A stretch of DNA of 64,000 bases from NCBI GenBank assembly GCA_027420455.1, contig DAIBJA010000078.1, positions 69,669 through 133,668 of the forward strand, in the 5' to 3' direction. Position 1 is the stretch's first letter. The number at the start of each line of letters is the position of its first letter. The notes under the pieces are model-generated. The model had not been told where the DNA came from, did not search any database, and was given only the letters and a program-made list of their open reading frames with translations. This document shows positions 24,220-50,184 of this stretch, one piece after another. The position numbers and the translations under genes were made by a program. This DNA is from Clostridia bacterium. GTDB lineage: Bacteria > Bacillota > Sulfobacillia > JAJZYS01 > JAJYTV01.

Positions 24220-24612
24220 TCAATCTTCGCTCACAAGCGGCTCCTCGCGCACCTCTCCCTCACCGAGCCAGTATCCGTGGAGCGCCATTGCCGGCGGTGC
24301 ACCCGCAATGAGGTGCAGTACGCCCGGGTACATGGCTTCGCGGATGTCCCTTGCGGATGGGCGCGGCTCGCCCGCGGGGTGCGAGTGGAAAATGGCCCGC
24401 AGTTCCATGCCGTCGCGCTCGAATTCCCGGAGGGCACGCATGACGTCCTCCGGGGCGATGGCGTAGCGGTAGGCGCTTTGCGCCGCATTGCGGCACGGAA
24501 TGAAGCAAAGGAGCTCAGCCCCCCTCCCGCCAAGAAGACCGCAAGCCTCGAAAGGCAAAGCCCTCGCCGCCTCTTCGCGGAGGGCTTGGCGCAGACCCCT
24601 GTCGAGCCGCAT
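24220..24612 (-). CDS. JAMM/MPN+ (Mov34, Mec-like) metallopeptidase
   Basis: EACG...HSHPAGEPRPSARD JAMM motif. Its ATG overlaps the stop of the upstream E1 gene (ATGA). Confidence 0.8.
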   Translation of the reverse strand: MRLDRGLRQALREEAARALPFEACGLLGGRGAELLCFIPCRNAAQSAYRYAIAPEDVMRALREFERDGMELRAIFHSHPAGEPRPSARDIREAMYPGVLHLIAGAPPAMALHGYWLGEGEVREEPLVSED

Positions 24613-25991
24613 CAGCAGGTGAGATCGAGTCCCGCAGCCGTCCAGGCGACGATGCCACCCTCGAGGCTGCGGGCGTCGATGCCGTGGCGCATCAGCCGCT
24701 CCGCGGCCAGCAGGGAGCGACGGCCGATCTCGCAGAAGACGACGACGGGGCGCGCCCCGTCGAGTGCCTCGCCGCTGCCCAGCTCCTCGAGCGGCAGCCT
24801 CAGCGCGCCGGGAATCGTCGGGCGGTCGACGGCTCCCTGGGCGCGCACGTCAAGCCACTGGACGCGCGGATCCTCCCTGAGCGCAAGCGCCTCGGGCACT
24901 GGGATACCGAGCCCCTCCTGCGCCTCCCGCGGCGCCTCGACGCCACAGAACGCCTCGTAATCGACCAGCTCCGTCAGGGTCGGGTGATCGCCGCAGGCGG
25001 CGCAGTGCGGGTCGCGACGGAGGCGGAAGCGACGCTCCTCGCCCATCAAGGCGTCGTAGACCAGAAGCCGGCCGCCCAGGCTCTCGCCGGCACCCGTGAT
25101 CAGCTTGATCGTCTCGAGCGCCTGCAAGGAACCCATCTGTCCACCCAAGGCGCCGATGACGCCTGCTTCCGCACAGCTTGGTACGCTGCCTGGCGGCGGC
25201 GGCTCGGGAAACAGGCAGCGATAGCAACCCTGGCGCGGCAGGTAGACAGAGAGCCGCCCCTCGAAGCGCAGGATCGACGCGTCGACGAGCGGCCTGCCGA
25301 GCAGGACTGCGGCATCGCTGACGAGATAGCGCGTGGGAAAGTTGTCGGACCCGTTGACGATCACGTCGCAGCCCCGCAGGAGCTCGAGGGCGTTATCCGC
25401 CGCAAGGAACTCCTCCACGGCGATGACCTCGATGTCCGGATTGATCGCGCGCAGGCTGCGTGCGGCGCTCTCGGCCTTCGGCCGCCCGACGTCCTCGTCG
25501 CGGTGCAGTGGCTGGCGCTGCAGGTTGGAACGCTCCACGCGATCGCCATCGATGATGACGAGATGGCCCACGCCCGCCGCCGCGAGGTACGTGGCGGCGG
25601 GCGCACCGAGCCCGCCGGCCCCGATCACGGCGACGCGGGCAGCCGTGAGCCTGGCCTGGCCGGCCGCGCCGATCTCGCCCAGGATCATCTGACGCGCGTA
25701 GCGCTCCGCCTGCCGAGGCGTCATGGGCTCAAGGGGGTAGGGCGCCAGGACAACACTGTCTTGCGGCAGCAGGGCAGCCTTGACCCCGCCCAAGAGCCGG
25801 GCATCGACGCCGTTCACCCGCACGTCGAGTTCCGGTGCGATGGCACCCTGGGCCGTGAACATGCGCCGGCCGAGTCCCGGCTCCGCCTGGGCGACCGCTT
25901 CGAGCAGTTCGCCCAAGGTGTCGCCTCGGGCGGCGATGGTTTCTTTCTGGTCTGCCAGAGCGATGAATGGGCCCTTGAGCGTCACGTCCAT
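24612..25991 (-). CDS. MoaD/ThiS-like domain fused to a MoeB/ThiF (MoeZ-type) E1 adenylyltransferase and a C-terminal rhodanese
   Basis: The start MDVTLKG is at 25991; the longer track ORF overlaps lpd. E1 motifs are VIGAGGLGAPAATYLAAAGVG, CYRCLFPEPPPPGSVPSCAEAGV and PHCAACG. Rhodanese active site VVVFCEIGRRS. The N-terminal ~90 aa are beta-grasp-like (VRVNGVD...LLPQDSVVLAPYP). Confidence 0.85.
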   Translation of the reverse strand: MDVTLKGPFIALADQKETIAARGDTLGELLEAVAQAEPGLGRRMFTAQGAIAPELDVRVNGVDARLLGGVKAALLPQDSVVLAPYPLEPMTPRQAERYARQMILGEIGAAGQARLTAARVAVIGAGGLGAPAATYLAAAGVGHLVIIDGDRVERSNLQRQPLHRDEDVGRPKAESAARSLRAINPDIEVIAVEEFLAADNALELLRGCDVIVNGSDNFPTRYLVSDAAVLLGRPLVDASILRFEGRLSVYLPRQGCYRCLFPEPPPPGSVPSCAEAGVIGALGGQMGSLQALETIKLITGAGESLGGRLLVYDALMGEERRFRLRRDPHCAACGDHPTLTELVDYEAFCGVEAPREAQEGLGIPVPEALALREDPRVQWLDVRAQGAVDRPTIPGALRLPLEELGSGEALDGARPVVVFCEIGRRSLLAAERLMRHGIDARSLEGGIVAWTAAGLDLTC

Positions 25992-26052
25992 GGCGTCACC
26001 CCCGCGATAAGGAGCAGCCCCCGCACCGCGTGCGGGGGCTGCCTCGGCCTGC

Positions 26053-27471
26053 TCAGGCCATCTTGCCGTCCGCAGCCAGCGCTGCGTCATTGATGATCTC
26101 GTAGAGGGTCGGGTGCGCGTGGACGGTCTCCTGCAGGTCGTAGAGCGAACCGTCGAAGGCCAGCGCCAGGCTGCCTTCCGCCACGAGGTCCGTGGCGTGC
26201 GGTCCGATGATGTGCAGGCCGAGCAGGTCACCTGTCTCGGCGTCCGCCACCACCTTGCAGATGCCCTGGTCCTCGCCGTAGATGAGGGCCTTGCCGTTCG
26301 CCTTGAAGAAGTATTTGCCCACCTTGACCTCGTGCCCCTGGTCGCGGGCCGCCTGCTCGTCCAGACCGACCGACGCAACCTCGGGACGGCTGTAGGTGCA
26401 ACGTGGCACCTTCACGTAATCGATGGTCTCAGGCTTCTTGCCGAGGATGGCATCCACCGCGATGAGCCCTTCGTGCACAGCGACGTGCGCAAGCTGCAGG
26501 CGGCCGATGACATCGCCGATCGCGAAGATGCGGGAGTCGCCCGTGCGCATCTCGGCGTCCACCTGAATGTAGCCGCGGTCGATCTTGACCTTGTCGAAGT
26601 TCTCGAGCCCGAGCCCCTCGCTGTTGGGCTTGCGGCCTATCGCCACGAGGATCTTCTGCGCCGCGAGCGTCTTCTTGCCGGACGGGCCCTCGATCGTGAC
26701 CTCGACTCCGTCGTAGGTCTCGCGATAGCTCGCGACGTCGACGCTGTGGCCCGGGTAGCATGCGATGCCGCGGCGCGTGAAGATGCGCTGCAGCTGGTCG
26801 GACATCTCCTTATCCTCCAGCGGCAGAAGCCGCGGCAGGGCCTCCACGAGGTGGACCTCGCCGCCGAGGTCCGCGAAGAGCGACGCCCACTCGCAACCGA
26901 TCGCGCCCGCGCCGACGATGATGGCCGACTTAGGCACCTCGCGCAGCTCGAGGGCATGGTCGCTCGAGATCACCCGCTCGCCATCGAACGGAAGTCCGGG
27001 CAATTCGCGCGCGGACGATCCGGTGGCGATCACGATGTGGTCCGGATTCAGGAGCTCGCGCTCGCCGTTGGACTTCTCCACAGAAACCGAGCCTGCCGGA
27101 GCGAAGATCGAAGGCGGCATGAGCGTGCCCACGCCTTCGTAGATCGTGACGCCCGCGCGCTTCAAAAGACCCTGAACGCCCTTGTAGAGCTGGTCGACGA
27201 TCTTCTGCTTGCGCGCCTGGGCCTGCACGAAGTCGAGGCGCGGCGTTCCGACCTCCAGGCCGAACTCCGAAGCCTCGCGCATGGTCGCCATGAGCTCCGC
27301 AGTGCGCAGGAGCGCCTTGGACGGAATGCAGCCCTTGTGCAGGCAGACGCCGCCCACCTTGTCCTTCTCCACGACGGCGGCCTTCAGGCCCGACTGGGCC
27401 GCGCGAATGGCCGCCTCGTAGCCGCCCGTACCTCCTCCTAGGAAGAGTACGTCGATCTTTTCGTCCGCCAA
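26053..27471 (-). CDS. lpdA: Dihydrolipoyl dehydrogenase
   Basis: GGGTGGYEAAIRAAQ FAD motif, redox disulfide GGVCLHKGCIPSK, HAHPTL. A TTG start at 27471 with an AGGAGGG RBS is preferred over the track start at 27528. Confidence 0.9.
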   Translation of the reverse strand: MADEKIDVLFLGGGTGGYEAAIRAAQSGLKAAVVEKDKVGGVCLHKGCIPSKALLRTAELMATMREASEFGLEVGTPRLDFVQAQARKQKIVDQLYKGVQGLLKRAGVTIYEGVGTLMPPSIFAPAGSVSVEKSNGERELLNPDHIVIATGSSARELPGLPFDGERVISSDHALELREVPKSAIIVGAGAIGCEWASLFADLGGEVHLVEALPRLLPLEDKEMSDQLQRIFTRRGIACYPGHSVDVASYRETYDGVEVTIEGPSGKKTLAAQKILVAIGRKPNSEGLGLENFDKVKIDRGYIQVDAEMRTGDSRIFAIGDVIGRLQLAHVAVHEGLIAVDAILGKKPETIDYVKVPRCTYSRPEVASVGLDEQAARDQGHEVKVGKYFFKANGKALIYGEDQGICKVVADAETGDLLGLHIIGPHATDLVAEGSLALAFDGSLYDLQETVHAHPTLYEIINDAALAADGKMA

Positions 27472-27482
27472 AGTCTGTCCCT

Positions 27483-27539
27483 CCTGGGTCGCCACCGGCG
27501 ACCCGCGTACTCCGCCCTGGGTCGCCACCGGCGACCCGC
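27483..27539 (-). promoter_or_regulatory. Tandem duplicated 24-bp element, each copy containing an 8-bp-stem palindrome, abutting the lpd RBS
   Basis: CCTGGGTCGCCACCGGCGACCCGC at 27483-27506 and 27516-27539. The palindrome is GGGTCGCC-N3-GGCGACCC. Confidence 0.55.
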
Positions 27540-27546
27540 ATTACGC

Positions 27547-27571
27547 CGTGGGCCGACATCTTCGGCCCACG
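27547..27571 (-). terminator. 10-bp hairpin downstream of dedA
   Basis: CGTGGGCCGA-N5-TCGGCCCACG. There is no clear U-tract. Confidence 0.4.
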
Positions 27572-27622
27572 CACTTGCCCGCTAGGAGAGTAGCACGACA
27601 CCGCCCATGAAGAAAGGCCGCG

Positions 27623-28165
27623 CTAGGTCCCGGAAGTCTTGCCGCGCCGGCGCCAGTAGATCCATCCACCAAGCGCCAGCAGGATTGCTGCGACGATGAC
27701 GAACCACGCCCGCTCGAGCCAGGTGATGAGCACTGGCCAGTTCGGTCCCACAAGATATCCCGCGCCAGCCGCCAGAAGCGGCCAGAGCAGGGCGCCGATC
27801 GCTGTGAACAGCACAAACCGGAGGTACGGCATCTCGAATAGGCCCGCGGGATACGAGATCAGGGCCCGGACCCCGGAGATCAGACGTCCGATGAGCAGCG
27901 CGGTGTCGCCACGTTTGCGGAAGAAGGCCTCTGCCTGCGCGAGGCGCACCTCCGTCAGACCGATGCGGGATCCATAGCGCAGGATGAGTTTGCGCCCGCC
28001 CCTGCGGGCGATCCAGTAGGCGATGTTGGCTCCGGTGATCGAACCCAATGCTCCGACGACGATGACCAGCGGCAGAGAGAGCTTCCCTTCTCCGGCCAGC
28101 ACACCCGCGTAGACGAGTGAGGCCTCGCTCGGCGAAGGGATGCCCAGGGACTCCACCAGCAGCAC
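27623..28165 (-). CDS. DedA-family membrane protein
   Basis: LVESLGIPSPSEASLVYAGVLAGEG. Family-conserved residues (IHVYGGIGYPLLYL) continue upstream of the first canonical start, so the true start is uncertain. Confidence 0.8.
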   Translation of the reverse strand: MLLVESLGIPSPSEASLVYAGVLAGEGKLSLPLVIVVGALGSITGANIAYWIARRGGRKLILRYGSRIGLTEVRLAQAEAFFRKRGDTALLIGRLISGVRALISYPAGLFEMPYLRFVLFTAIGALLWPLLAAGAGYLVGPNWPVLITWLERAWFVIVAAILLALGGWIYWRRRGKTSGT

Positions 28166-28439
28166 AAGGTAGAGGAGCGGATAACCGATGCCGCCGTAGA
28201 CGTGTATGGCCCGACCTGCCTCTCCGACCTCCTGCCGGAACCCGAGGCAGGTGCTACCCTCCTTCCGCGATAGACCGGCGGTCAGAAGCCGCCAGCTCCG
28301 TCTTCGCGTCTCCCCTTGTCCATATCATGGTGGCTGCCGCCGGCGACGTAAAGGGTGCGGGGCATCATCCTGGAATGTTAGGATAGAAGGCATCGTTTGC
28401 CCTCTGCACCCCACAGCAGCCTGAAAGGAGGCGTCCAAG

Positions 28440-29327
28440 GTGCAGGATACCCTAGCGCGTGCCACCGCCGAATCCGGCAGGATCCGGGCGATCGCCGTCA
28501 TCGGCACCCGGCTTGTGGAATCCGCCAGGCGTCGCCACGGCACGTTTCCGGTCGCGACCGCCGCGCTCGGCCGCAGCATGATGGGCGCAGTCCTGCTGGC
28601 CACGTCCATGCTCAAGCCGCCCGACCGGCTCACGCTTCGCCTGCTCGGCGACGGCCCGCTCGGCGCGGTCATCGCCGATGCCGACGCCGAGGGTGGCGTG
28701 CGCGGATATGTGCAGAATCCCCTAGTCGCGCTGCCCATCAAGGCGAACGGCAAGCTCGACGTCGGGCGCGCCGTCGGTAAGGGCATGCTCGTCGTGAGCC
28801 GCAGCATGGGCGAGGCCCAACCCTACACCACGACCTCCCCGCTTGTCAGCGGCGAGGTTGGAGACGACATCGCAAGCTATCTTCTCACTTCGGAGCAAGT
28901 GCCTTCCGCGGTCGCCCTGGGGGTGCTCCTGCGTGCCACCGGCACCGTCAAGGCTGCCGGCGGACTGCTGCTGCAGGTGCTGCCCGGCGGCGAGGAGTTC
29001 TCGGCCGAACTCGAGGCGCGCGTCCAGGCACTCGGGGCCATCTCGTCCCGTGTCGAGGTGACGGCTTCGGCGGACGACCTCCTGCGCGATCTCCTCGACG
29101 GCTTCAAGGACGTGCGCATCGCCAAGCCCTCGCCCTTGCGCCTGCGCTGCACCTGCAGCCGGACGCGGGCCAGCCGATCGCTGCTGCTGCTGGGGACGAA
29201 AGCGCTCGACGATCTCGTGGGTGACGGATCCGCTGAGCTCAAGTGCCACTTCTGCGGCCGGACATACCGCTTCGACCTCCCGCAGCTTGAACATCTGCGC
29301 GACGAGGTCTCCGCCCAGCAGGCATAA
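28440..29327 (+). CDS. hslO: Hsp33-family redox chaperone
   Basis: C-terminal zinc centre CTCS...CHFCGRTYRF; GTG start with a GAAAGGAGG RBS. Confidence 0.9.
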   Translation: MQDTLARATAESGRIRAIAVIGTRLVESARRRHGTFPVATAALGRSMMGAVLLATSMLKPPDRLTLRLLGDGPLGAVIADADAEGGVRGYVQNPLVALPIKANGKLDVGRAVGKGMLVVSRSMGEAQPYTTTSPLVSGEVGDDIASYLLTSEQVPSAVALGVLLRATGTVKAAGGLLLQVLPGGEEFSAELEARVQALGAISSRVEVTASADDLLRDLLDGFKDVRIAKPSPLRLRCTCSRTRASRSLLLLGTKALDDLVGDGSAELKCHFCGRTYRFDLPQLEHLRDEVSAQQA

Positions 29328-29329
29328 GC

Positions 29330-29938
29330 TCAAAGCCCCTGCGCGAATCCGCCCAGCGCGACCCGGCGCTCGAGGTCGAGCACCGTAAAGTCAGGTATGC
29401 CGATCCTGACCCAGAGCCGGGACCCGAGCCTGCGATCCAGGATGGCGCCGAGCAGCACCGTGATGATCCGGCCGTGCGACACGAGGGCGATGTCGCCTTC
29501 CTCTACGGCCATGATCTCCGCAAGGCACCGCGTGACGCGGTGCCTTGCCTCGTCATAGGGCTCGAACGCGGGATCCGCCGTGCCATCGAGATAGGCCCCG
29601 ACCCGCTCGCGAAATTCCGCTTGCGGCAGGATGCGCGCTGCGAAGGAGACCTCGCGTAGGCCCGCATGCACAGCGGTCGGGCCGCCTGAAAGGCTCGCCA
29701 TGATGCTGGCCGTCTCCACGGCCTTCGGTTCATCGCTGGTCCAGATCCGCACAGGGCCAAGTCCCACGCGGTGGCCCAGCTCGTACGCCTCCCGCCGTCC
29801 CTGCTCCGACAGCTGCCAGGCGCGAGGTGGCTTCTCCTCATCGATCGTGGGACTCGCATGACGGACGACGTAGAGGCGCCTTGACATCTCGTGGCGACTC
29901 GAAGGCGCTTTGATGGTCGGGAATATCGGTTTTTCCAT
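29330..29938 (-). CDS. Histidine phosphatase (phosphoglycerate mutase-like) family protein
   Basis: RLYVVRHASPT (RHG-type motif) and ALVSHGRIIT. The start MEKPIF is inferred from an AGGAGGAG RBS. Confidence 0.7.
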   Translation of the reverse strand: MEKPIFPTIKAPSSRHEMSRRLYVVRHASPTIDEEKPPRAWQLSEQGRREAYELGHRVGLGPVRIWTSDEPKAVETASIMASLSGGPTAVHAGLREVSFAARILPQAEFRERVGAYLDGTADPAFEPYDEARHRVTRCLAEIMAVEEGDIALVSHGRIITVLLGAILDRRLGSRLWVRIGIPDFTVLDLERRVALGGFAQGL

Positions 29939-31646: not shown

Positions 31647-31711
31647 TGTTTCCTCTCCTAACGCTCCACACTTAGCCTCCATGATAGACTTGCCTCGCGG
31701 AGGTGTGAAAC

Positions 31712-32056
31712 TTGCATGCCTTGTTCTTCTGGTACCCTGGCTGAACGTCCTGCCGCAAGGCGAGGGCGGAGCTCTCGCAAAGAGGGTTCGCGGTAACGGA
31801 GCGGCGGCTGCCCAAGGAGGCGCCTGACCGCGAAGAACTGCGTCAGATGGCGACTCTCCTCCCGGGCGGCGTGCGGGACCTCGTCGCGCTGCGCGGCCAG
31901 CACTGGCGCGCCCAGGGGGTAGACCTCGCTAGCCTGCCGGATGAAGAAGTGCTCGCTCGCCTGCTCGACGATCCGCTGTCGCTGCGGCGTCCGCTCCTCT
32001 GGTTGCCCGGGCGTCTGCTCCTGGGCTACAGCGCGGAGAGCTACCGCGACCTTTGA
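31712..32056 (+). CDS. Spx/MgsR/ArsC-family protein with an in-frame TGA at the first Cys position of CXXC (selenocysteine candidate or nonsense pseudogene)
   Basis: TTG start at 31712 with a GGAGGTG RBS 6 nt upstream. Translation is MHALFFWYPG-TGA(31742)-TSCRKARAELSQRGFAVTERRLPKEAPDREELRQ...LSLRRPLLWLPGRLLLGYSAESYRDL. This aligns with the Spx/MgsR pattern Y..PSCTSCRKA...LLRRPI...GYN. Confidence 0.6.
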
Positions 32057-34728: not shown

Positions 34729-35460
34729 ATGTCCCTGTGCCTTGTCACCGGAGCCACCGGCGCGATCGGCACCGCCATCGCTCGGCGCTTGGCCCTTCCC
34801 GGCAACACGATCGTCCTGCACTATCACATGCATCGAGAAGAGATCGATGCACTCGCCGCGCAAATTACTGCGCTTGGCGCAGGGGCCATCCCTGTAGAGG
34901 GCGATCTGCGGGACCTCCGAGCCGTCGACGGCCTTGTCCAACGGGTAATGGACGAGGTCGGCACGCCGCACGCTGTGGTGCATGCGGCAGGTACCAGTCA
35001 GTTCGCCCTTTTGCAAGACCTTCCCTTGTCCGAGTGGCGAAACTTGCAGGATGTCCATCTTGGTTCCGCCTACCGCCTTCTCCATGCCTTCCTGCCTGGC
35101 ATGATCGAGCGGCACTACGGCAGGTTCGTACTGATCGGATCGGTCTACGGCGAGCGCGGCGGAGCGATGGAAGCTGGCTACGCTGCCGCCAAGGCGGGCT
35201 ATTCCGCCTTGGCGCGCGCCACCCTGGGCGAGGTGGGGCGCAGCGGCGTGACGGTCAACGTCGTGGCGCCCGGAGCCATCGATACGCCGATGCTCGCCCG
35301 CCTTAGCGACCAGGAGCGCCAGGAACTGAGGGCCCAGATCCCCCTCGGCAGACTCGGCCGCCCCGAAGAGGTTGCCGCAGCTGTCGCCTTCCTGCTCTCG
35401 CCGCCGGCGGGTTACATCAGCGGCTGCACGCTGCGTGTGGACGGCGGCTACTCGATATAG
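34729..35460 (+). CDS. SDR-family oxidoreductase (FabG-like)
   Basis: VTGATGAIGTAIA, YAAAKAG, VNVVAPGAIDTPM. Confidence 0.85.
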   Translation: MSLCLVTGATGAIGTAIARRLALPGNTIVLHYHMHREEIDALAAQITALGAGAIPVEGDLRDLRAVDGLVQRVMDEVGTPHAVVHAAGTSQFALLQDLPLSEWRNLQDVHLGSAYRLLHAFLPGMIERHYGRFVLIGSVYGERGGAMEAGYAAAKAGYSALARATLGEVGRSGVTVNVVAPGAIDTPMLARLSDQERQELRAQIPLGRLGRPEEVAAAVAFLLSPPAGYISGCTLRVDGGYSI

Positions 35461-36017
35461 CGGGTGATTTCCTGAAGCGGCCTACGCTTCCAATCGGGCG
35501 GAATCTCCTCGGGGTGACCGAGCAGGAGGCAGCAGGTGATCTCTTCGCCATCCCTGCAGCCGAGAAAGCTGCGCACGGCCTCTTTGCGGGTAAGTTGGCC
35601 CGTGTTCCAGCGCACCCCAACCTCACGTTCCCATGCGACGAGCTGCAGCGCATAGGCCGCCATCATGCAGGAGGCGTAATCCTCCTGGCGGCGCTTCTCG
35701 TCCTCGACCACCGCCTGCAAGACGTAGACGACAGCCGCCGCATCCTCCACCTCGGCCCGGATGGCCGCGAGATCGCCAACGGGCTTGCCGTCCTTCGCGG
35801 CGCGCTGACGCTGCAGTTCCACGCGGAGATCGGCCAGCCGAGAGATCGCCTGCCCACGCACGACGACGAACCGCCATGGCTGCGTATGCTTGTGGTTCGG
35901 GGCATGCGAGGCCATCTCGAGCATCTCCTCGATCAGGCCGTCAGGAAGCGGACCCGGACGAAAACGGTAGACCGTGCGGCGCTGCCGCACGGCCTCCGCG
36001 ACAGGATGAGACTCCAT
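35448..36017 (-). CDS. Nitroreductase-family protein
   Basis: RRTVYRFRP...APNHKHTQPWRFVVV. Confidence 0.8.
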   Translation of the reverse strand: MESHPVAEAVRQRRTVYRFRPGPLPDGLIEEMLEMASHAPNHKHTQPWRFVVVRGQAISRLADLRVELQRQRAAKDGKPVGDLAAIRAEVEDAAAVVYVLQAVVEDEKRRQEDYASCMMAAYALQLVAWEREVGVRWNTGQLTRKEAVRSFLGCRDGEEITCCLLLGHPEEIPPDWKRRPLQEITRYIE

Positions 36018-38031: not shown

Positions 38032-38631
38032 CTAGCCCGCTCCGCCTCCGCTGCTGCCGCTGCTGCCGCTGCCGCTGCTGCCGCTGCTCGATCCACTGCT
38101 GCCGCTGCTGCCACCGCTCGAAGAGCTGCCACCGCCAGACGATGAGGAGCTCTGGGACAATAACTGCATCAGGGCCTGGCGCACAGCAGCTGCGATCGTC
38201 TGCGCCATGCGCGGCGACTGCACGATCTTTTCCATCGATGCCTCAAGCGCCTGCTGGCCGGTAGGCGTCGAAAGCGCGGACTGCAAGGCGGAACTCGCGC
38301 CTTGCGAGGACGACGATCCTCCGCTCGATCCGCCACCCGAACTCGAACCGCCCATCGCGCTGCCGCTCGATCCGCCGCTCGACGATCCGCCGCTCGACGA
38401 TCCGCCGCCCGACGCCGAGGACCCGCCGCCGCCAGAGGACGTATTGGACCCGCCGCTCATAGACGACCCGCCTTCCGTGCCCTGACTCGACCCGGCGCTG
38501 GTCGTGCTCTTCTCACCGGAGACGACACCGGTCGCCGACCCGCCCATCGGCGACGGCTCGCTGCTGCCGACATGCAGCGTACAGCCGCCCAGCAGCACCG
38601 TGAGGGCCATCAGAGGAATCAGCCTGCGCAT
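38032..38631 (-). CDS. Ser/Gly-rich lipoprotein (low complexity)
   Basis: MRRLIPLMALTVLLGGC lipobox signal peptide (start 38631). Long (S/G)n tracts are encoded by GCT/GCC/GGA-type trinucleotide repeats. Confidence 0.6.
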   Translation of the reverse strand: MRRLIPLMALTVLLGGCTLHVGSSEPSPMGGSATGVVSGEKSTTSAGSSQGTEGGSSMSGGSNTSSGGGGSSASGGGSSSGGSSSGGSSGSAMGGSSSGGGSSGGSSSSQGASSALQSALSTPTGQQALEASMEKIVQSPRMAQTIAAAVRQALMQLLSQSSSSSGGGSSSSGGSSGSSGSSSGSSGSGSSGSSGGGAG

Positions 38632-38795: not shown

Positions 38796-40031
38796 TCAGA
38801 CGTCCCAGCTGCGCCCGATATCCTCGCGCCACTGCGCACCGGTAAACCGGATGAAGCTCGCGGCGGCATATGCGTTATCGCGCGCCTCACTCGGTCCTTC
38901 GCCCTGCCCCACGACGCAGACGACGCGCCCGCCGGCCACCTGCCAGACATCACCCAGCCTGCGGGTGCCGGCATGAAAGACGAGCGCGCCCGCGGCGCGC
39001 GCGGCTTCAAGCCCTGCGATCTCCGCCCCGCTCTCGGGTTCGTCAGGATAGCCTTGCGCCGCGAGCACGACGCCGAGTGCGTTGCGCACCACCTGCGGCG
39101 CCTCGGACGGCAGGCGACCGCGCGCCGCTCCGTCGAGCCAAGGCAGGATGGATCCGGCGATGGCCGGCAGCAGCACCTCGGTTTCAGGATCGCCGAAGCG
39201 TACGTTGTACTCGAGCACCTTCGGCCCCCGTTCGGTCAGGATCAGCCCGGCATAGAGGGCGCCGGAATACGGCGTGCCTCGGTCGTCGAGCAGTTTGAGC
39301 AGGGGACCGATCGTGCGCTCGGCGCACTCCTCGGCCGTCACGGACGTCGTGGGCACCGGTGCGAAGGCGCCCATGCCGCCGGTGTTGGGACCGAGGTCCC
39401 CGGTGAGCAGCCTCTTGTGGTCGCGAGCAAACGGCAGGAGCCGATAGTCGCGTCCATGACAGATCGCGATCAGCGATACCTCGGGACCGCGCATGCGCTC
39501 CTCGAGCAGGACGCTGCCGTACTGTCCGATCAGGCGGCGGGCGGCACGCCGCGCACCAGCCGCGTCGTCCGCGACGATGACACCCTTGCCGGCTGCGAGA
39601 CCGTCCGCTTTGACGACCGTGCGGTCGGGGTGTACAGCGAGCGTCTGCTCCACCGCGCCAAAGTCCTGGCAGAGCGAAGCGGCGGCCGTCGGGATGCCCG
39701 CGGCCCGCATCAGCGTCTTGGCGTGCGCCTTGCTCGCCTCGATCTGGGCGCCCAGGCGGTCTGGGCCGAAGACGGCGATGCCCTGCGCCCTGAGGTCTTC
39801 CGCGATGCCGCGCACGAGCGGCTCTTCCGGTCCGGGCACGACGAGGTCTATGTGGAGGCGCCGCACCGCGTCGAGCACGTCGACGGTCGACGTCGAGTCG
39901 CCCGCCACGCTCTCCGCCACGGTGGCGATCCCGTCGCTGCCCGGCATGGCGAACACGGTCGCGCCGCCCGCGACCAGGGACCACGAGAGGGCGTGTTCAC
40001 GGCCGCCCTTGCCCAGCACCAGCGCGCGCAT
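38796..40031 (-). CDS. purD: Phosphoribosylamine--glycine ligase
   Basis: MRALVLGKGGREHALSWSL...; ATP-grasp; last gene of the pur operon. Confidence 0.95.
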   Translation of the reverse strand: MRALVLGKGGREHALSWSLVAGGATVFAMPGSDGIATVAESVAGDSTSTVDVLDAVRRLHIDLVVPGPEEPLVRGIAEDLRAQGIAVFGPDRLGAQIEASKAHAKTLMRAAGIPTAAASLCQDFGAVEQTLAVHPDRTVVKADGLAAGKGVIVADDAAGARRAARRLIGQYGSVLLEERMRGPEVSLIAICHGRDYRLLPFARDHKRLLTGDLGPNTGGMGAFAPVPTTSVTAEECAERTIGPLLKLLDDRGTPYSGALYAGLILTERGPKVLEYNVRFGDPETEVLLPAIAGSILPWLDGAARGRLPSEAPQVVRNALGVVLAAQGYPDEPESGAEIAGLEAARAAGALVFHAGTRRLGDVWQVAGGRVVCVVGQGEGPSEARDNAYAAASFIRFTGAQWREDIGRSWDV

Positions 40032-41524
40032 CAGTGGCGGAAGTGGCGCTCGCCGGTGAAGTAGAGCGAGATGCCACTCCCCTGCGCCACATCCTTCGAC
40101 TCCTCGTCCCTCAGCGAGCCGCCCGGTTCGACGACCGCCGCGATGCCGCGCTCAGCGGCCAGTTGCAGCACGTCGCCGAAGGGGAAGAAGCCGTCCGAGG
40201 CGAGCGCCGCTCCTTCCGCAGCGCCGCCGGCCTGGGCGAACGCTGCCTGTGCGGCGCGAACGCGGCTGACCTGACCCGCCCCGATACCCAGGGTCACGCC
40301 GTCCTTGGCGACGACGATAGCGTTCGAGCGCGCATGCTTGGCCACTGTGAACGCGAACGCGAGGTCTTCCCTATCCTTCAGGTCCGGCCCCGCGACATGC
40401 TGCCACGCATCGGCCGGCCTCATGGCGTCATCCGGCGACTGGAGCACGAGGCCGCCGCCGATCACCCGCACCTCGAGCCCGCGGCGCCTCTTTGCCGGCA
40501 GCGCGAGAACCCTGAGGTTCGGCTTTGCGGCCAGGATGGCCCGCGCCCCAGGTGTCACGCCCTCCGCCACCACGACCTCGAAGAAGCGGGACGTCACGTA
40601 CTCCGCGATCGCCTCGTCGATCGTGCCCCGCAGAGCGATGACGCCGCCGAAGGCCGCCTCGTCGTCGGCGGCCACCGCCGCCGCGAGCGATTGCTTGAGC
40701 GCCATGAGGGAGGCGGCACCGGACGGGGTCTGGTGCTTGATGACGCAGGCTGCCTCTGGCGGCAGGTCGAGCGCGAGTCGCCAGGCGGCGTCGGCGTCGA
40801 GGAGGTTATTGTAGGAGAGCTCCTTGCCTTGGACCACCTCGGCGCTTGCGATGCCAGGACCGCCGTCGCGGTAGAGGGCTGCCACCTGGTGCGGATTCTC
40901 CCCGTAGCGCAGCGCGTGGACGAACGACGCCGACGCGGCGGGAAACTGCGGCCAGTCTTCGCCCGCGAGGTAGTCGGCGATGGCCATGTCGTAGCGCGCC
41001 GTCTCGCGGAAGGCTGCCGCCGCGAGGCGTCGGCGCAGTTCGGCGTCCCCGGCGTCGATTCCGCTCAGGACATCGGCGTAGAAGTCGGGGCCCGGCACGA
41101 CCCAGACGCGGTCATGATTCTTCGCCGCCGCACGCAGCAGGGCGACTCCTCCGATGTCGATCTCCTCGATGACGGTGGGCCGATCGGCACCCGACGCCAC
41201 CGTCTCGACGAAGGGGTAGAGAGAAACAGCCACGAGGTCGATGCGCCGGGCTCCGATGCGGACGAGATCCCGCTCGTCATCGGAGGTCGGGCGGCTCAGG
41301 ATGCCGCCGTGCACGGCAGGATGGAGCGTCTTGACGCGGCCGCCGAGGACCTCCGGCGAACCGGTGTAATCCGCCACCTCCTGCACCTCGAGCCCTGCGG
41401 CCCTCAGGGCAGCGGCCGTCCCGCCACTTGCCAAGAGGTCGAAGTGGCGCTCTGCAAGAGCCTGCGCGAATGCGACGAGTCCGGACTTGTCACGAACGCT
41501 GAGAAGTGCTGTCGGCATGTTCAT
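40031..41524 (-). CDS. purH: Bifunctional AICAR transformylase / IMP cyclohydrolase
   Basis: ALLSVRDKSGLVAFAQAL...GGRVKTLHP...YFTGERHFRH. Confidence 0.95.
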   Translation of the reverse strand: MNMPTALLSVRDKSGLVAFAQALAERHFDLLASGGTAAALRAAGLEVQEVADYTGSPEVLGGRVKTLHPAVHGGILSRPTSDDERDLVRIGARRIDLVAVSLYPFVETVASGADRPTVIEEIDIGGVALLRAAAKNHDRVWVVPGPDFYADVLSGIDAGDAELRRRLAAAAFRETARYDMAIADYLAGEDWPQFPAASASFVHALRYGENPHQVAALYRDGGPGIASAEVVQGKELSYNNLLDADAAWRLALDLPPEAACVIKHQTPSGAASLMALKQSLAAAVAADDEAAFGGVIALRGTIDEAIAEYVTSRFFEVVVAEGVTPGARAILAAKPNLRVLALPAKRRRGLEVRVIGGGLVLQSPDDAMRPADAWQHVAGPDLKDREDLAFAFTVAKHARSNAIVVAKDGVTLGIGAGQVSRVRAAQAAFAQAGGAAEGAALASDGFFPFGDVLQLAAERGIAAVVEPGGSLRDEESKDVAQGSGISLYFTGERHFRH

Positions 41525-42123
41525 CCCTCCGCGATATGCACAATTCGGCCCTCGAGCTCGAGCCGGCCCAGAACCAGGAGGCGTAGAGCCTCCGGCAGCA
41601 GCCGGTGTTCGATGGCGTGCACCCTGGTCTCGAGCTCCGCACGGGTCTCCCCTCCCAGCACAGGCAGCGCCTCCTGCAGGATGATGGGACCCGCGTCGAG
41701 GCCCTGGTCGACGAAATGCACCGTGACTCCCGTGACCTTCGCGCCGTACCGCATCGCCTGACCGATGCCATCAAGTCCCGGGAAGGCCGGCAGCAGCGAA
41801 GGATGCACGTTGACGATGCGGCCCGCGAAGCGCTCGACGAAGCTCGGCGACAGGATGCGCAGGAATCCCGCCAGTACGACGGCGTCGACCGCGGCGTCCT
41901 CGAGTGCGGCCAGGAGCTCCTGTTCCCAGGCCGGCATCCCGAGCCTCCTGGCGTCGGCGAAGAACGTCGTGATGCCCTGGGCTTCGGCCCAGCGCAGCGC
42001 GGGCGCCTCACGATCCGCGCCGACGAGCGCAAGGCTTGCCGGCATAGACCCGTCGCGCATGGCGCGATCGAGCGCCATGAGGTTCGTGCCGCGGCCGGAG
42101 ACGAGCACCGCAAGGCGCTTCAA
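41521..42123 (-). CDS. purN: Phosphoribosylglycinamide formyltransferase
   Basis: LAVLVSGRGTNL...NVHPSLLPAFPG. Confidence 0.9.
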   Translation of the reverse strand: MKRLAVLVSGRGTNLMALDRAMRDGSMPASLALVGADREAPALRWAEAQGITTFFADARRLGMPAWEQELLAALEDAAVDAVVLAGFLRILSPSFVERFAGRIVNVHPSLLPAFPGLDGIGQAMRYGAKVTGVTVHFVDQGLDAGPIILQEALPVLGGETRAELETRVHAIEHRLLPEALRLLVLGRLELEGRIVHIAEG

Positions 42124-43130
42124 AGCGTTACCCCCTCCCCTTGCCGCACCTCGCCCACGACGCGCGGCCGGCCGCCCGCGGCCGAGATGCCCGCGATGAT
42201 GCGGGGTGCCTCCTCGGCCTCGACGGCGAGGACGAGTCCGAGGCCCATGTTGAAGACCTGGTAGGCCTCCTGCTCTGGGATCTTGCCGCGCTCCAGGAGG
42301 AGTTCGAGCTCCCCTGGCACCCCCCAGGTCTTGCGGTCGAAGGCGGCCATGAGACCCCGCCCAAGCATGCGCGGCACGTTGCCTGGGATACCGCCGCCCG
42401 TGATGTGGCTGATGCCGTGGATGCCTGGGCTGCGCAGCGCCGGAAGGACTTCCGGGCCATAGAGGTGGGTCGGCCGCAGCAGCACCTCACCCAGCGGCCG
42501 CTCGAGGTCGTAGTTGGCACCCAGGTCCAGTCCCGCTTCGCGCACGATGCGGCGCACGAGGCTGAAGCCGTTGCTGTGCACGCCATCGGACGGCAGCCCG
42601 ATCAGGATGTCCCCGGCCTTCGCCAAGGTGTCGGTGATGACGTTCTCGCGCTCCACGACGCCGACGCCGAAGCCCACGAGGTCAAGCCCGCCGCTTGGGA
42701 AGAGGTCCGGGAGTTCCGCCGTCTCCCCGCCGAGCAGGGCGCAGCCGATCTGGGCGCAAGCCTTGCCTACACCCGAGACCACCTGGGCGACCTCGGCCGG
42801 CACGAGATGGCCGACTCCGACGTAATCGAGGAAGAAAAGCATCTCCGCCCCTTGGCAGAGCACATCGTTCGCGACCATCGCAAGACAGTCCTGACCTACC
42901 TGCGTAAGGTCCCCGAGCTCCTGCGCGAGCATCAGCTTCGTACCCACGCCGTCGGCCCCGGCCACGAGCACAGGGTCCGCGTAGCCCTGAAGGCGGAAGA
43001 GGCCGCCAAAGCCGCCGATGCCGGCAACCACCTCGGGCCGCGTCGCCATCCGCCCGATCGCCTTGAGGTGGCCAAGCAGGTCCTCCTTGGCCTTCAGATC
43101 AACGCCGGAGCGCCGATACGCCTCACTCAC
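42120..43130 (-). CDS. purM: Phosphoribosylformylglycinamidine cyclo-ligase
   Basis: YRRSGVDLKA...DGVGTK...HITGGG. A GTG start at 43130 after an AAGGAGG RBS is preferred over the track start. Confidence 0.95.
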   Translation of the reverse strand: MSEAYRRSGVDLKAKEDLLGHLKAIGRMATRPEVVAGIGGFGGLFRLQGYADPVLVAGADGVGTKLMLAQELGDLTQVGQDCLAMVANDVLCQGAEMLFFLDYVGVGHLVPAEVAQVVSGVGKACAQIGCALLGGETAELPDLFPSGGLDLVGFGVGVVERENVITDTLAKAGDILIGLPSDGVHSNGFSLVRRIVREAGLDLGANYDLERPLGEVLLRPTHLYGPEVLPALRSPGIHGISHITGGGIPGNVPRMLGRGLMAAFDRKTWGVPGELELLLERGKIPEQEAYQVFNMGLGLVLAVEAEEAPRIIAGISAAGGRPRVVGEVRQGEGVTL

Positions 43131-43144
43131 ATCCCTGGCCTCCT

Positions 43145-44515
43145 TCAGATCTCGCCGTCCTGCACCGGCACCGGGTACTCGCCCGTGAAGCACGCGAGAC
43201 AGTGATCGGGGCGACCGGTCGCCCTGAGAACGCCTTGCGCCGAGAGAAAGCGCAGGCTGTCAGCGCCGATCAGTCCTCTCAGCGCATTCTCGCCGGCCGC
43301 GACGGCGATCAGCTCGTCGCGGTTGGACGTATCGATGCCATAGTGGCAGGGATGGAGGTAGCGAGGCGAGGCGATGCGCACATGGACCTCGGTCGCTCCC
43401 GCTTCCCGCAGAAGGCGCGTCAGGTGGCGCATGGTCGTGCCGCGCACGAGCGAGTCGTCGATGAGCGCGACCCGCCGCCCGCGCACCACCTCCGCCACCA
43501 CCGTCAGCTTGCGCTGCACGCCGCTCTCGCGGCTCTGCTGCGCGGGATGGATGAAGGTGCGCGCGACATAGCGGTTCTTGACCAGGCCAAGTTCCTGCCT
43601 GAGTCCCAGTTCCGCTGCGTAGCCCTCCGCCGCCGGCAGGCTCGAGTCCGGTACGCCGAGGACGACGTCGGCCGGTGCCGGCGCCTCGCGTGCCAACTGC
43701 TGACCGAGCCGGCGACGCGCCTGGTAGATCGATTCCCCGCCATAGCGGGAGTCAGGGCGTGCGAAGTAGATGAGTTCGAAGGCGCAGAGCTTCTCGTGCG
43801 CGGGGTCGCCGGGTCTCAGGACATGGACGTCGCCCATGAGGTCGAGCTGCACCACTTCACCTGGTTCCACCTCGCGCACGAAGTCCGCGCCGATCGCCGT
43901 CAGGGCGCAGGTCTCGGACGCCAGGCAGGGCATGCCCTGCAGCCGTCCGAGGACCAGGGGCCGGATGCCGAAGGGGTCGCGAGCCCCGAGGACTCCGTTC
44001 GGCGTGAGCAGGGTGAAGGCGTAGCCACCGCTGAGCTGCGTCAGCGCGTCCTGGAAGGCGGCTTCGAGACTGCCTCCCTGGGAGCGGGCCATGAGGTGGG
44101 CCACCACCTCCGTGTCGGTCGTCGTCTGGAAGATGGCCCCCTGGCGTTCCAGCCGGTCGCGTGCCGCCTGCGCGTCGACGAGGTTGCCGTTATGTCCGAG
44201 GGCGAACGGGCCGAGGTGCGAGCGCACGTAGAGCGGCTGGGCGTTCTCCGGCCGTGACGCGCCCGTCGTCGAGTAGCGGACGTGCCCGATGGCCGAGTAT
44301 CCCTTGAGCTGCAGGATGTCGTCCGCTCCGAAGACCTCATGCACCAGACCCATGCCCTTGTGCAAGTGGATGCCGTCGTCGTCGAGCACGGCTATGCCGG
44401 CACTCTCCTGCCCGCGGTGCTGTAGGGAGAAGAGCGCCTCGGCGGTCAGCGCGGCCGCGTCCCGCCGCCCGACGATGCCGAAGACGCCGCATGCCTCCCG
44501 CAGCTCATCCGTCAT
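43145..44515 (-). CDS. purF: Amidophosphoribosyltransferase
   Basis: The propeptide is followed by the catalytic CGVFGIVG. PRPP motif VALIDDSLVRGTT. The alternative start at 44530 overlaps purL. Confidence 0.95.
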   Translation of the reverse strand: MTDELREACGVFGIVGRRDAAALTAEALFSLQHRGQESAGIAVLDDDGIHLHKGMGLVHEVFGADDILQLKGYSAIGHVRYSTTGASRPENAQPLYVRSHLGPFALGHNGNLVDAQAARDRLERQGAIFQTTTDTEVVAHLMARSQGGSLEAAFQDALTQLSGGYAFTLLTPNGVLGARDPFGIRPLVLGRLQGMPCLASETCALTAIGADFVREVEPGEVVQLDLMGDVHVLRPGDPAHEKLCAFELIYFARPDSRYGGESIYQARRRLGQQLAREAPAPADVVLGVPDSSLPAAEGYAAELGLRQELGLVKNRYVARTFIHPAQQSRESGVQRKLTVVAEVVRGRRVALIDDSLVRGTTMRHLTRLLREAGATEVHVRIASPRYLHPCHYGIDTSNRDELIAVAAGENALRGLIGADSLRFLSAQGVLRATGRPDHCLACFTGEYPVPVQDGEI

Positions 44516-46653
44516 GCCTCTCGCCTCCACGCCCGCTGGAGCTCTTCCTGCCCGTACTCCCAGACACCCAGGTCACTTTGGATCCTGAGTCCGCCCGCCG
44601 TCGTGCGTCCGAGGGTGCGGCAGTTCACGCCGGCCCTCTCGGCGGCTGCCATCAGTGCGCCTGGATCCCCAGAGAGCGCGACGAACTGGGCGCTCGCCTC
44701 GCCGAAGAGCGTCAAGGCGTCTGCCTGGCCCAATGCGAGATCGAGCCCAAGGCCCGTGTAGAGCGCGATTTCCGCGAGCGCTGTCATGAGGCCGCCGTCC
44801 GCGACGTCATGGAGGAGCGCGATCGCCTCCCTGGCCGCGTCATTCTCGAGTACCGCCCGCATGCGCCTGAGGCCTTCGTAGTCGGGCTGGGCGGGCTCGG
44901 ACTGCCCGAGCGACTTCAGCTCCGCGAACACGCTGCCGCCGAGGTGCGGCGCGAAGTCGCCCAGCAGCAGCACTTCGAGTCCCGGGACAGCCGGCCCAAC
45001 GCCAATCGCGTGCTCAGGGTCCGGAAGGAGCCCGATCATGCCGATCACCGGTGTCGGCACGATCGCGACGCCTTCGGCCTCGTTGTAGAGGCTGACATTG
45101 CCGCCCGTGACGGGCACGCCGAGTTCCCGCGCGGCATGCCCGATCCCGGCCACCACAGCCCGCAGCGCGGCGGCGCCCTCCGGGTGCTCGGGACTCGGCA
45201 GGTTGAGGCAGTTCGTCAGGCCGATCGGGGCCGCGCCGCGGGCCATGACATTGCGGGCCGCCTCCGCCACCGCGTGCTCCGCTCCCAGCTCGGGGGAGAG
45301 CGCGCAGAGGCGCGGATTCTGGTCGGTCGTCACGGCTACGCCGGGCGCGCCCAGCGCCGCGCGCAGCACCGCGGCATCGAGTCCGGGCCGGACGACGGTG
45401 CGCAGACCGACATCCTGGTCGTAGGTGGAGTAGATGGGCGAGCGGTCCGAGAGGTCGGGCAGGCCGAGAAGGGAAAGAAGGTCCTGCCGCGCCGCGGGAG
45501 CATCATACGTCAGGAGAGCCCTGTGGCCCACCGGCATGCCTTCCGGCAGATGCCGCAGCGGCGCTTCTGCATAGATCGCCGTGTCGAGCTCCGAAAGGCA
45601 TTGGCCATGGAAGAGGAAGCGCATCGCGGGTTTCGCCGTGATGCGGCCGATGGCGGCCGCCTCGATGCCGTAGCGCCTGGCCACCGCCTGCGCCGGCGCG
45701 ACATCCTCCGGCCGCAGACAGAGCAGCATGCGCTCCTGGCTCTCGGAGAGGAGGATCTCGGGCGGCACGAGGTCCTGGGCGCGCAGCGGCACCTGGGCCA
45801 GCTCGATCTCGGCGCCGACTCCCCCCTGGTGGCACATCTCGATCGAAGCGCCGGCGAGTCCTCCGGCACCGAGATCCTGGATCGCGACGACCTTGAGGTC
45901 GCGCAGGATTTCGAGCGTGGCCTCGATCAGCAGCTTGCCGAAGAAAGGATCCCCGACCTGCACGCGCGGGCGGTCCTGTGAGGCGTCCGCCTGCAGTTCC
46001 ACCGAAGCGAAGGCGGCACCGCCGATGCCGTCGCGCCCGGTCGCCGCTCCCAGCAGCAGGAAGACGTTCCCTTCGCCGGCCGCGGCCGCGCTGCGCATCT
46101 CCTCATGACGCAGGAAGCCGACGCACATGGCATTGACGAGCGGGTTGCGCTGATAGCTCGGATGGTAGTAGACGTCGCCGCCGACCGTGGGCACGCCGAC
46201 GCAGTTGCCATAGTGGCCGACGCCCGCGACGACGCCGCGCGCCAGAAACGCGCTGCGCGGATCGTCCAGGGGGCCGAAGCGCAGGGAGTCGAGGAACGCG
46301 GCCGGCCGCGCCCCCATGGCGAGAACGTCGCGCATGATGCCGCCGAGGCCCGTCGCGGCGCCTTGGAGCGGCTCCACGGCCGAAGGGTGGTTGTGTGACT
46401 CGATCTTCGCGGCGCAGGCCCAGCCGTCACCCAGATCGAGCACACCGGCACTCGCACCGGGTCCGGCCATGACGCTCGCGCCCTCCTTGGGCAGGCTGCG
46501 CAGCAGTTCTTTCGAGTGCTTGTAGGCGCAGTGCTCGGACCACTGGACCCCGAGGATCGCCCATTCGAGGGAGTTCAGCTCGCGCCCGGCCCTGCGCCGG
46601 GCCTCCTTCGCCTCCTCCGGCGTGAGGCCGGCTGCCGCCGCCAGATCAGCCAT
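44512..46653 (-). CDS. purL: Phosphoribosylformylglycinamidine synthase subunit PurL
   Basis: GVQWSEHCAYKHSK, ESHNHPS. The ATG at 46653 overlaps the purQ stop. Confidence 0.95.
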   Translation of the reverse strand: MADLAAAAGLTPEEAKEARRRAGRELNSLEWAILGVQWSEHCAYKHSKELLRSLPKEGASVMAGPGASAGVLDLGDGWACAAKIESHNHPSAVEPLQGAATGLGGIMRDVLAMGARPAAFLDSLRFGPLDDPRSAFLARGVVAGVGHYGNCVGVPTVGGDVYYHPSYQRNPLVNAMCVGFLRHEEMRSAAAAGEGNVFLLLGAATGRDGIGGAAFASVELQADASQDRPRVQVGDPFFGKLLIEATLEILRDLKVVAIQDLGAGGLAGASIEMCHQGGVGAEIELAQVPLRAQDLVPPEILLSESQERMLLCLRPEDVAPAQAVARRYGIEAAAIGRITAKPAMRFLFHGQCLSELDTAIYAEAPLRHLPEGMPVGHRALLTYDAPAARQDLLSLLGLPDLSDRSPIYSTYDQDVGLRTVVRPGLDAAVLRAALGAPGVAVTTDQNPRLCALSPELGAEHAVAEAARNVMARGAAPIGLTNCLNLPSPEHPEGAAALRAVVAGIGHAARELGVPVTGGNVSLYNEAEGVAIVPTPVIGMIGLLPDPEHAIGVGPAVPGLEVLLLGDFAPHLGGSVFAELKSLGQSEPAQPDYEGLRRMRAVLENDAAREAIALLHDVADGGLMTALAEIALYTGLGLDLALGQADALTLFGEASAQFVALSGDPGALMAAAERAGVNCRTLGRTTAGGLRIQSDLGVWEYGQEELQRAWRREA

Positions 46654-47360: not shown

Positions 47361-47608
47361 CGCGGTGCGATCTCGAGGTCGAAGTCCTCGAGCACGGGAT
47401 TGACGAGAAGTTCCGCCGCCATGCGGCGCACCTCCGCTTCGGCCAGCTCGAGCGAGGCGGCGTCCACGGTCAGTTCGATCAGCTTGCCTACAGCGACGTC
47501 GCGGGCCGAAAAGCCGAGATCGCGCAGGGCATGTCCCACCGCCTGGCCGGCGGGGTCGAGCACGCCGGACCTGAGGCGCACCCCGAGCTGAGCGCGATAC
47601 TCAGGCAT
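47357..47608 (-). CDS. purS: Phosphoribosylformylglycinamidine synthase subunit PurS
   Basis: 83 aa; VLDPAGQAVGHALRDLGF; positioned between purC and purQ. Confidence 0.9.
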   Translation of the reverse strand: MPEYRAQLGVRLRSGVLDPAGQAVGHALRDLGFSARDVAVGKLIELTVDAASLELAEAEVRRMAAELLVNPVLEDFDLEIAPR

Positions 47609-50136: not shown

Positions 50137-50184
50137 GAGATCCCTCCACGTCCAGACTAACGCCTGCATGGGACAGGGTCAATC

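Follow-up and report, generated by a model that had tools for sequence, protein, structure and literature searches.

A conserved in-frame TGA codon in a predicted selenoprotein gene of the ArsC/Spx fold from uncultured high-GC Bacillota

The 64,000-nucleotide stretch of a Clostridia bacterium assembly that we analyzed (contig DAIBJA010000078.1, hereafter the window) carries at positions 31712-32056 a reading frame that is interrupted, ten codons after its start, by an in-frame TGA. We consider it very probable that this is an intact, expressed gene for a selenoprotein of 114 residues with the ArsC/Spx fold, and we hold with similarly high confidence that the TGA is a conserved recoding site of the selenocysteine (Sec) type in a gene that has been misannotated everywhere. 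A sequence-only reading of the window had proposed a UxxC selenoprotein of the Spx/MgsR/ArsC family at this locus. The proposal is supported by the presence of TGA in 14 of 14 orthologues, by a frame that is kept on both sides of it, by the suppression of synonymous change immediately downstream, by a compensatory base pair in an RNA hairpin in that region and by the fit of the hairpin to the model for the bacterial Sec insertion sequence (bSECIS).

Read from its TTG start, the frame gives LHALFFWYPG*TSCRKARAELSQRGF...YRDL*, that is, ten sense codons, the TGA, 103 sense codons and a stop, the product ending in ...GYSAESYRDL (Table 1). The position of the TGA, the frame and the presence of a separate stop all re-read as first described, as did the TTG at 31712 placed 6 nt after a GGAGGTG ribosome-binding site, and both the start and this site are kept in the orthologues. 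Residues of note in the part that follows the TGA are C14, G53, R61, R92-R93-P94 and G105-Y106. A mechanical list of open reading frames (ORFs) gives only a 69-residue tail for the gene (31847-32056), the same 3' part to which the sequence-only reading had drawn attention, and public protein sets contain exactly this 69-residue fragment (P0003). All 12 of the close homologues found in our protein search are likewise N-terminally short (69-101 residues). The public copies are thus all annotated as fragments of 69-101 residues that lack the active site, because gene callers stop at the TGA.

Orthologous DNA was taken from assemblies in ENA, JGI and Logan as well as from NCBI metagenome-assembled genomes (MAGs) labelled "Bacillota bacterium"; P0016 (locus L024) and P0017 (locus L026) were added when 1.84 billion protein representatives were searched exhaustively with a profile. 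The sequence-only reading had left it to an alignment of orthologues to say whether Cys or TGA occupies the site: TGA is present at the same codon in all 14 distinct sequences, and the hairpin is conserved with one compensatory change. This holds even for P0017/L026, which is only ~45-50% identical (judged by eye), and for P0016/L024, which is also much diverged; both keep the TGA together with the synteny of the locus, in which trpS is divergently adjacent and a gene for an MFS or DUF1805 protein lies downstream. The sequence xxVFFWYPG precedes the TGA in frame in the 14 orthologues. In the 12 closer ones the start codon, ten positions before the TGA, varies between TTG, GTG and ATG and is always in frame, and in L024 and L026 a TTG or GTG start sits one codon further upstream; GGAGGTG precedes the start in all 13 orthologues for which upstream DNA was obtained. 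Searches of genomes, metagenomes and the 1.84 billion proteins turned up no orthologue with a Cys codon. A metagenome scan with the clade alignment returned two loci only, both among the known orthologues, and the clade is an isolated one, with just five of the 1.84 billion representatives at E < 1e-10.

The way in which the orthologues differ is informative as to whether the frame is translated. For codons -7 to -1 relative to the TGA, the proportion of nonsynonymous differences (pN) is 0.029 and that of synonymous differences (pS) 0.362, and because of this disparity we conclude that the N-terminal segment is translated and that purifying selection acts on it. Over codons +12 to +100, the mean nonsynonymous divergence (dN) is 0.216 and the mean synonymous divergence (dS) 0.969, a ratio of ~0.22. 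The substitution pattern therefore indicates that purifying selection acts on the frame on both sides of the TGA. This bears on the simplest alternative, which the sequence-only reading had itself raised, namely that a Cys-type Spx/MgsR gene recently became a pseudogene by mutation of TGC or TGT to TGA, or that the base was miscalled. One nucleotide change would be enough, and the public gene calls do give a short fragment at the locus. However, 14 orthologues from independent assemblies all have the TGA at a mean dS of ~1, selection is evident on both of its sides, the start codon and ribosome-binding site are conserved, and the searches for a Cys-codon orthologue were all negative; descent of all of the assemblies from a single contaminated source is excluded by their sequence divergence. 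We regard the probability of a pseudogene or sequencing error as negligible.

On this contig TGA is also the commonest ordinary stop, with 40 of the 61 called genes ending in it, and it terminates 11 of the 14 orthologues as well, so any recoding must be local. Its conservation at the site, the selection on the frame and its use as an ordinary stop together exclude a recent pseudogene, a base-call error and a global change of code. It should be kept in mind that conservation demonstrates decoding and not the identity of the inserted residue. The UGA could be decoded as something other than Sec, through a global reassignment to Trp or Gly, near-cognate read-through with the aid of the hairpin, or delivery of Cys by SelB; a tRNA(Sec)-like tRNA(Cys) has reportedly been described by Mukai et al. 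We give such decoding only a small chance, as the 40 genes that end in TGA rule out global reassignment, the site is that of the nucleophilic Cys of CxxC, which is the signature of Sec/Cys exchange, and the hairpin conforms, G-G loop included, to the SECIS model of the SelB type. Were Cys the inserted residue, a TGC or TGT codon would do the job more simply, and at least some of the 14 lineages should then have one. That the family already has catalogued UxxC selenoproteins, and that the TGA stands at the redox-active Cys, likewise argue for Sec.

A further alternative is that the TGA simply terminates translation, leaving a leader peptide of 10 codons and the hairpin as a regulatory leader, with a shorter protein produced from a downstream start. 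Gene callers do find an in-frame GTG, TTG or ATG downstream, and a short ORF followed by a hairpin superficially resembles an attenuator. However, protein-level conservation extends through the 34 codons that separate the TGA from Met46 (TSCRKARAELS...ERRLPKEAPD), which align to Spx over its strand beta1, helix alpha1 and strand beta2, and the supposed leader continues the same alignment in the same frame. Moreover, a start codon is absent after the TGA, the called downstream starts vary among the orthologues (residue 21, 26-30 or 46), and a product of 69-101 residues would begin too late to include the CxxC helix or the initial strands of the fold. A leader is very unlikely, given that what follows the TGA is conserved at the protein level and that the called starts are inconsistent with each other, and we return to the Sec reading and to the RNA element on which it would depend.

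With the U of the UGA as position 1, the hairpin occupies positions 19-37 (31760-31778 in the window) and has the sequence GCGAGGG-CGGAG-CUCUCGC. The sequence-only reading had described a shorter stem at these coordinates; the hairpin is present with two extra pairs (G.U and G-C), which give a 7-bp stem (31760-31766 with 31772-31778), a 5-nt apical loop CGGAG (31767-31771) and a folding energy of ~-10.7 kcal/mol. It begins 15 nt 3' of the UGA, with a stem that shares nucleotides with the codons for the protein's ARAELS helix. The further claim that the hairpin is compatible with bacterial SECIS rules agrees with all four published constraints. The bSECIS model calls for a loop of 3-9 nt with a G in its first two positions, an upper stem of 4-16 bp, 16-37 nt from the UGA to the loop and a minimum free energy (MFE) of no more than -7.5 kcal/mol; the UGA-to-loop spacing here, 22 nt, lies inside the range of the model (PMC13188914). 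The loop CGGAG also fits the pattern N1-G-[G/U]-N-N2, in which N1 (here C) can pair with N2 (here G).

Constraint on this RNA is seen first at synonymous sites. In the first seven orthologues, synonymous change is absent at all nine conserved-residue codons between +1 and +11; elsewhere in the gene, only 10 of 56 conserved-residue codons are invariant and 46 carry a synonymous change (Fisher p = 2.9e-6). RNAalifold picks the 19-37 helix as the consensus structure, and the helix pairs in 98 of 98 cells of the alignment, with one double-sided and one single-sided compatible change. The double-sided change is in L026, where A22->C and U34->G turn an A-U pair into C-G, one of the two substitutions being synonymous and the other replacing Ser by Ala. 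L019 converts G24.U32 to A-U and breaks two pairs of a competing hairpin, designated A, and changes in L003 are confined to loop positions 26 and 30. L024 has hairpin A destroyed by four substitutions, three synonymous, between positions 4 and 18, and is identical at positions 19-37. Hairpin A (positions 5-27, GCAA loop, -15.1 kcal/mol) was rejected as a functional element on account of these uncompensated breaks: L019, L024 and L026 disrupt six cells, spread over four of the nine pairs, with zero compensation. A second hairpin of the MFE fold (positions 28-48) was also discarded, as it is not conserved and codons 12-15 vary freely. The case for a functional RNA element at positions 19-37 is built from the frozen synonymous sites, the perfect pairing, the single compensation and the fit to the model, which together point to a SECIS-like role.

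Several observations weigh against the selenoprotein interpretation. The covariation consists of the single double-sided change, and 33 of 500 shuffles reach it, a significance that is only modest because the element is almost invariant; the MFE fold of the single sequence is hairpin A, though the orthologues break it. The genes selA, selB and selD and tRNA-Sec could be found neither in the window and its flanks nor in the loci retrieved, a search that covered ~100 kb of this genome and syntenic parts of its relatives (the window, 10 kb to its left, central and right parts of the contig, and 27 records totalling 367 kb and largely syntenic), and whose outcome is an absence of data, not evidence of absence. 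Similarly, the window yielded no other candidate for a selenoprotein. ARAGORN detected zero tRNAs in the window and 10 loci, and an Rfam scan of the window matched nothing. In tblastn searches with E. coli SelA, SelB and SelD and an archaeal-type SelD, the only matches were weak ones to SelD, which we rejected as they correspond to PurL and PurM, paralogues of SelD in the AIR-synthase superfamily; the match in L009 is 79% identical to the PurM of the window. A scan of the window for in-frame TGA codons with coding-like flanks, as judged by GC content at third codon positions, gave seven candidates; apart from the present one, all proved to be ends of genes or frames on the antisense strand.

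The family to which the product belongs was assessed with Sec written as Cys. It matches Pfam ArsC (PF03960) over residues 6-113 at 55.5 bits (gathering threshold 24), and its best NCBIfam model is TIGR01617 (Spx/MgsR) at 67.7 bits, against a cut-off of 75.05. TIGR01617 is also the best model for 10 of the 10 orthologues tested, at 53.8-69.6 bits, all below the cut-off. Scores on the Spx models NF002459, NF009210 and NF009885 are 26-62 bits for cut-offs of 123-159 (NF002459 alone, 48-62 bits for 123); those on NF041106, "ArsC family (seleno)protein", are 26-32 bits or below the reporting threshold for a cut-off of 85, with true members at 112-130; and those on TIGR00014, glutaredoxin (Grx)-coupled ArsC, are 26-34 bits for 106.05. 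The clade is nearest to the Spx/MgsR family but lies below every curated NCBIfam cut-off. When a profile of the clade was compared with solved structures, the best PDB relatives were those of Bacillus subtilis Spx (E ~2e-14), aligned without gaps over residues 5-113. In this alignment the TGA takes the place of Cys10 in the C10xxC13 motif of Spx, and the nine-residue motif C/U-TSCRKARA is identical; the TGA also aligns with the first Cys of CxxC in the Cys-type relatives P0013-P0015, P0038 and P0046. Both the assignment to the Spx/MgsR/ArsC family, through the PF03960 match and the gapless alignment to Spx, and the placement of the TGA on the redox-active first Cys of CXXC, through Spx Cys10, stand as the sequence-only reading had them.

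Among other public Spx/MgsR-family proteins, P0018, P0019, P0024-P0028 and P0031-P0033 have TIGR01617 as their best model and are truncated, being cut at or just after the CxxC, and P0039 has Trp exactly at the first Cys/Sec position (NT-W-QTCQK), which is what translation of a TGA under code 4 would give. From these truncated entries (P0018-P0033) and P0039, it is feasible that more unannotated Sec forms of the Spx/MgsR family may exist beyond this clade.

How far the similarity to Spx extends to function can be judged from residues whose roles in Spx are established. C10xxC13 is its redox center, Gly52 contacts Tyr263 in the RNA polymerase alpha subunit's C-terminal domain, Arg60 and Lys62 are needed for transcriptional activation, and the protein is under the control of ClpXP (PMC2801614). 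The equivalent of Gly52 (Gly53) is invariant in 14 of 14 orthologues, as are the equivalents of Arg92-Pro93, and that of Arg60 is Arg in 13 of the 14 and His in L017. The position of Lys62 is occupied by Gln or Arg, never Lys. The orthologues have 114-119 residues and end 0-6 residues past the last aligned residue of the Spx core; Spx has 131 residues, and its C-terminal tail of ~15 residues is missing from the clade. In Spx this tail carries the ClpXP/YjbH degradation signal.

As to how the gene might work, transcription would probably begin within ~20 nt upstream of the ribosome-binding site, with the conserved TGATAGACT at 31682-31690 as a possible extended -10 element that also overlaps the start region of trpS on the other strand. 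The start codon of trpS (minus strand, 31682-31680) lies just 30 nt from the TTG of the selenoprotein gene, TGATAGACT and two ribosome-binding sites share the tiny divergent intergenic region (31680-31712), and a promoter-like site was flagged on the minus strand at 31709-31681. Initiation of translation at the TTG at 31712 is supported by its conservation. The hairpin, acting as a SECIS, would then recruit SelB.GTP.Sec-tRNA(Sec), leading to insertion of Sec at the UGA at 31742, and the product would carry U11-T-S-C14 where Spx has C10-T-S-C13. Judging from the family, the most likely chemistry is a reversible switch between a selenol/thiol form and a U11-C14 selenenylsulfide, the output of which could be Spx-like docking on the alpha C-terminal domain or the direct reduction of a substrate.

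We lean slightly, and tentatively, toward a Spx-like role in stress regulation, with docking on the alpha C-terminal domain of RNA polymerase, because the clade has the same CTSCRKARA motif as Spx, retains Gly52, Arg60 and Arg92-Pro93 and has Spx as its best match among structures. That the protein is a true Spx-type regulator, acting on the alpha C-terminal domain with a U11-C14 selenenylsulfide in place of the disulfide, seems to us doubtful. Evidence that counts against a regulator includes the scores of the orthologues tested (n = 10), none of which reached the TIGR01617 or curated Spx values, as well as the absence of the Spx C-terminal tail and the fact that Lys62 is not kept. The same facts (TIGR01617 at 54-70 bits for 75.05, NF002459 at 48-62 for 123, the missing tail, the unconserved Lys62) favor the rival view, that the product is a stand-alone thiol/selenol oxidoreductase or an arsenate-reductase-like enzyme of the sort catalogued as "ArsC-like" selenoproteins. 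Selenoproteins are, in addition, overwhelmingly oxidoreductases, the known Sec-containing relatives are all labelled reductases, and the gene neighborhood is redox-themed. An enzyme of this kind is a possibility that we take seriously while thinking it somewhat less than an even chance, as the best family and structure matches are to Spx/MgsR and Spx, TIGR00014 gives just 26-34 bits for a cut-off of 106, and the identical CTSCRKARA motif and the retained Gly52, Arg60 and Arg92-Pro93 are those of Spx.

If our reading of the gene is right, correct gene models in this clade, which falls below the cut-off of every curated NCBIfam model, need the TGA to be read as Sec. A conserved Sec codon and SECIS would also imply that the high-GC Bacillota represented by these MAGs keep the whole Sec machinery and have a need for selenium, and the nearly invariant 19-nt hairpin might serve as an extra training example for SECIS predictors. 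The protein appears to be the closest yet to a Sec version of Spx. Should binding to RNA polymerase prove true, selenoproteins would extend from enzymes to the control of transcription, and the protein would, to our knowledge, be the first selenoprotein transcription factor. It would then offer a clean Sec/Cys pair for studies of redox sensing, and a natural experiment on what selenium contributes to a redox sensor (for example, faster oxidation, easier reduction, resistance to over-oxidation).

The surroundings of the gene have features of their own. Upstream, at ~24250-29330, is a redox- and sulfur-themed group that encodes a Prok-JAB protein, a ThiF/rhodanese E1-like protein, a pyridine-nucleotide disulfide oxidoreductase, a DedA/VTT membrane protein and Hsp33 (28440-29327); downstream, a nitroreductase gene is located at 35448-36017, and the synteny of the neighborhood is conserved in the orthologous loci. 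A complete purine operon of the Bacillus type (purE-B-C-S-Q-L-F-M-N-H-D) occupies 38796-50169 on the minus strand. Between purD and a GAF-GGDEF gene are overlapping tandem repeats with periods of 9, 15, 24 and 42 (e.g., CGATCCGCCGCTCGA three times; 38042-38430), located in and beside a 92-residue ORF (38207-38485) that has no Pfam match. The left end of the window (1-6358) holds a Tn7-like transposition module (L015 3902-11656), whose tnsA is just left of the window. The GC content of the first 12 kb is 0.56-0.62, against 0.65-0.70 elsewhere, which suggests that this part is an acquired island.

Table 1. Coordinates in the window of the parts of the predicted selenoprotein gene and of the genes of the Tn7-like module.
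Feature	Position	Strand	Basis
Ribosome-binding site GGAGGTG	31699-31705	+	Read directly; 6 nt before TTG
Start codon TTG	31712-31714	+	Read directly; conservation in orthologues
Coding segment before the TGA, M-HALFFWYPG (strand beta1, thioredoxin-like fold)	31712-31741	+	Frame conserved in 14 orthologues
In-frame TGA, putative Sec codon (U11 of U-T-S-C)	31742-31744	+	TGA in 14/14 orthologues; alignment with Spx Cys10
Remaining 103 codons (ArsC/Spx fold)	31745-32053	+	Pfam ArsC match; Spx structures; dN/dS
SECIS-like hairpin	31760-31778	+	Fold energy; RNAalifold consensus; pairing; frozen codons; bSECIS fit
Genuine stop codon TGA	32054-32056	+	Read directly
tnsB, C-terminal part	57-1532		
tniB/tnsC	1529-3070		
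tniQ/tnsD, first gene	3067-4662		
tniQ/tnsD, second gene	4703-6358		

Selenoproteins of the ArsC-like type have been known since 2005-2006, and the family was reported in Deltaproteobacteria in 2006 (PMC1794560); the hosts of the present clade, by comparison, are uncultured high-GC Bacillota. Data S1 of the deep-Sep study lists an "Arsenate reductase" selenoprotein with a UTTC motif, MLLLCYPQ-U-TTCQRARGWL... (PMC12013277). When we scored that protein on TIGR01617 it gave 111.9 bits, and as a member of this model it means that Sec forms of the Spx/MgsR family had already been catalogued, under another name. The two proteins are alike in size (~115 residues), in the ArsC fold, in having TIGR01617 as their best model and in the placement of Sec first in a UxxC motif after strand beta1 (CYPQ-U-TTC-QRARGWL and WYPG-U-TSC-RKARAEL). 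They nevertheless share only 29% identity with two gaps, the clade scores 54-70 bits where the deep-Sep protein scores 111.9, and the latter has NTSGNSY where the present protein has ALRGQHW and Spx has STRSKVF. The sequence-only reading had held that a Sec-containing Spx-like regulator would be unusual; with a UTTC form already within TIGR01617 this is true only in part, the kind being known and the clade itself and its closeness to Spx being new.

Of the solved structures, the best match is B. subtilis Spx (PDB 1Z3E, 3GFK, 6GHB and 7F75), a redox-sensing regulator that binds the alpha C-terminal domain and is also from a Bacillota host, with which the clade shares the motif C/U-T-S-C-R-K-A-R-A and residues Gly52, Arg60 (in 13 of the 14), Arg91-Arg92-Pro93 and Gly104-Tyr105 of Spx. 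It differs from Spx in the predicted Sec at the position of Cys10, in an identity of 29%, in the absence of the C-terminal tail and in the replacement of Lys62 by Gln or Arg. The UxxC proteins of NF041106 (e.g., MDE3003982.1) match in fold and size and have nearly the same context around the motif (...RPG-U-TSC-KR...), but their identity to the present protein is 34% with 15 gap positions, and the central part (LYVAKGK...LRAP) is different. The Grx-coupled ArsC proteins of TIGR00014, including the UxxS form MBT3519430.1, share PF03960 and a nucleophile at the same structural position, although they have a single nucleophile (CxxS or UxxS) where the present protein has UxxC. From these sequence comparisons we conclude that the clade is a new, separate branch of an already known kind of selenoprotein and not a new kind.

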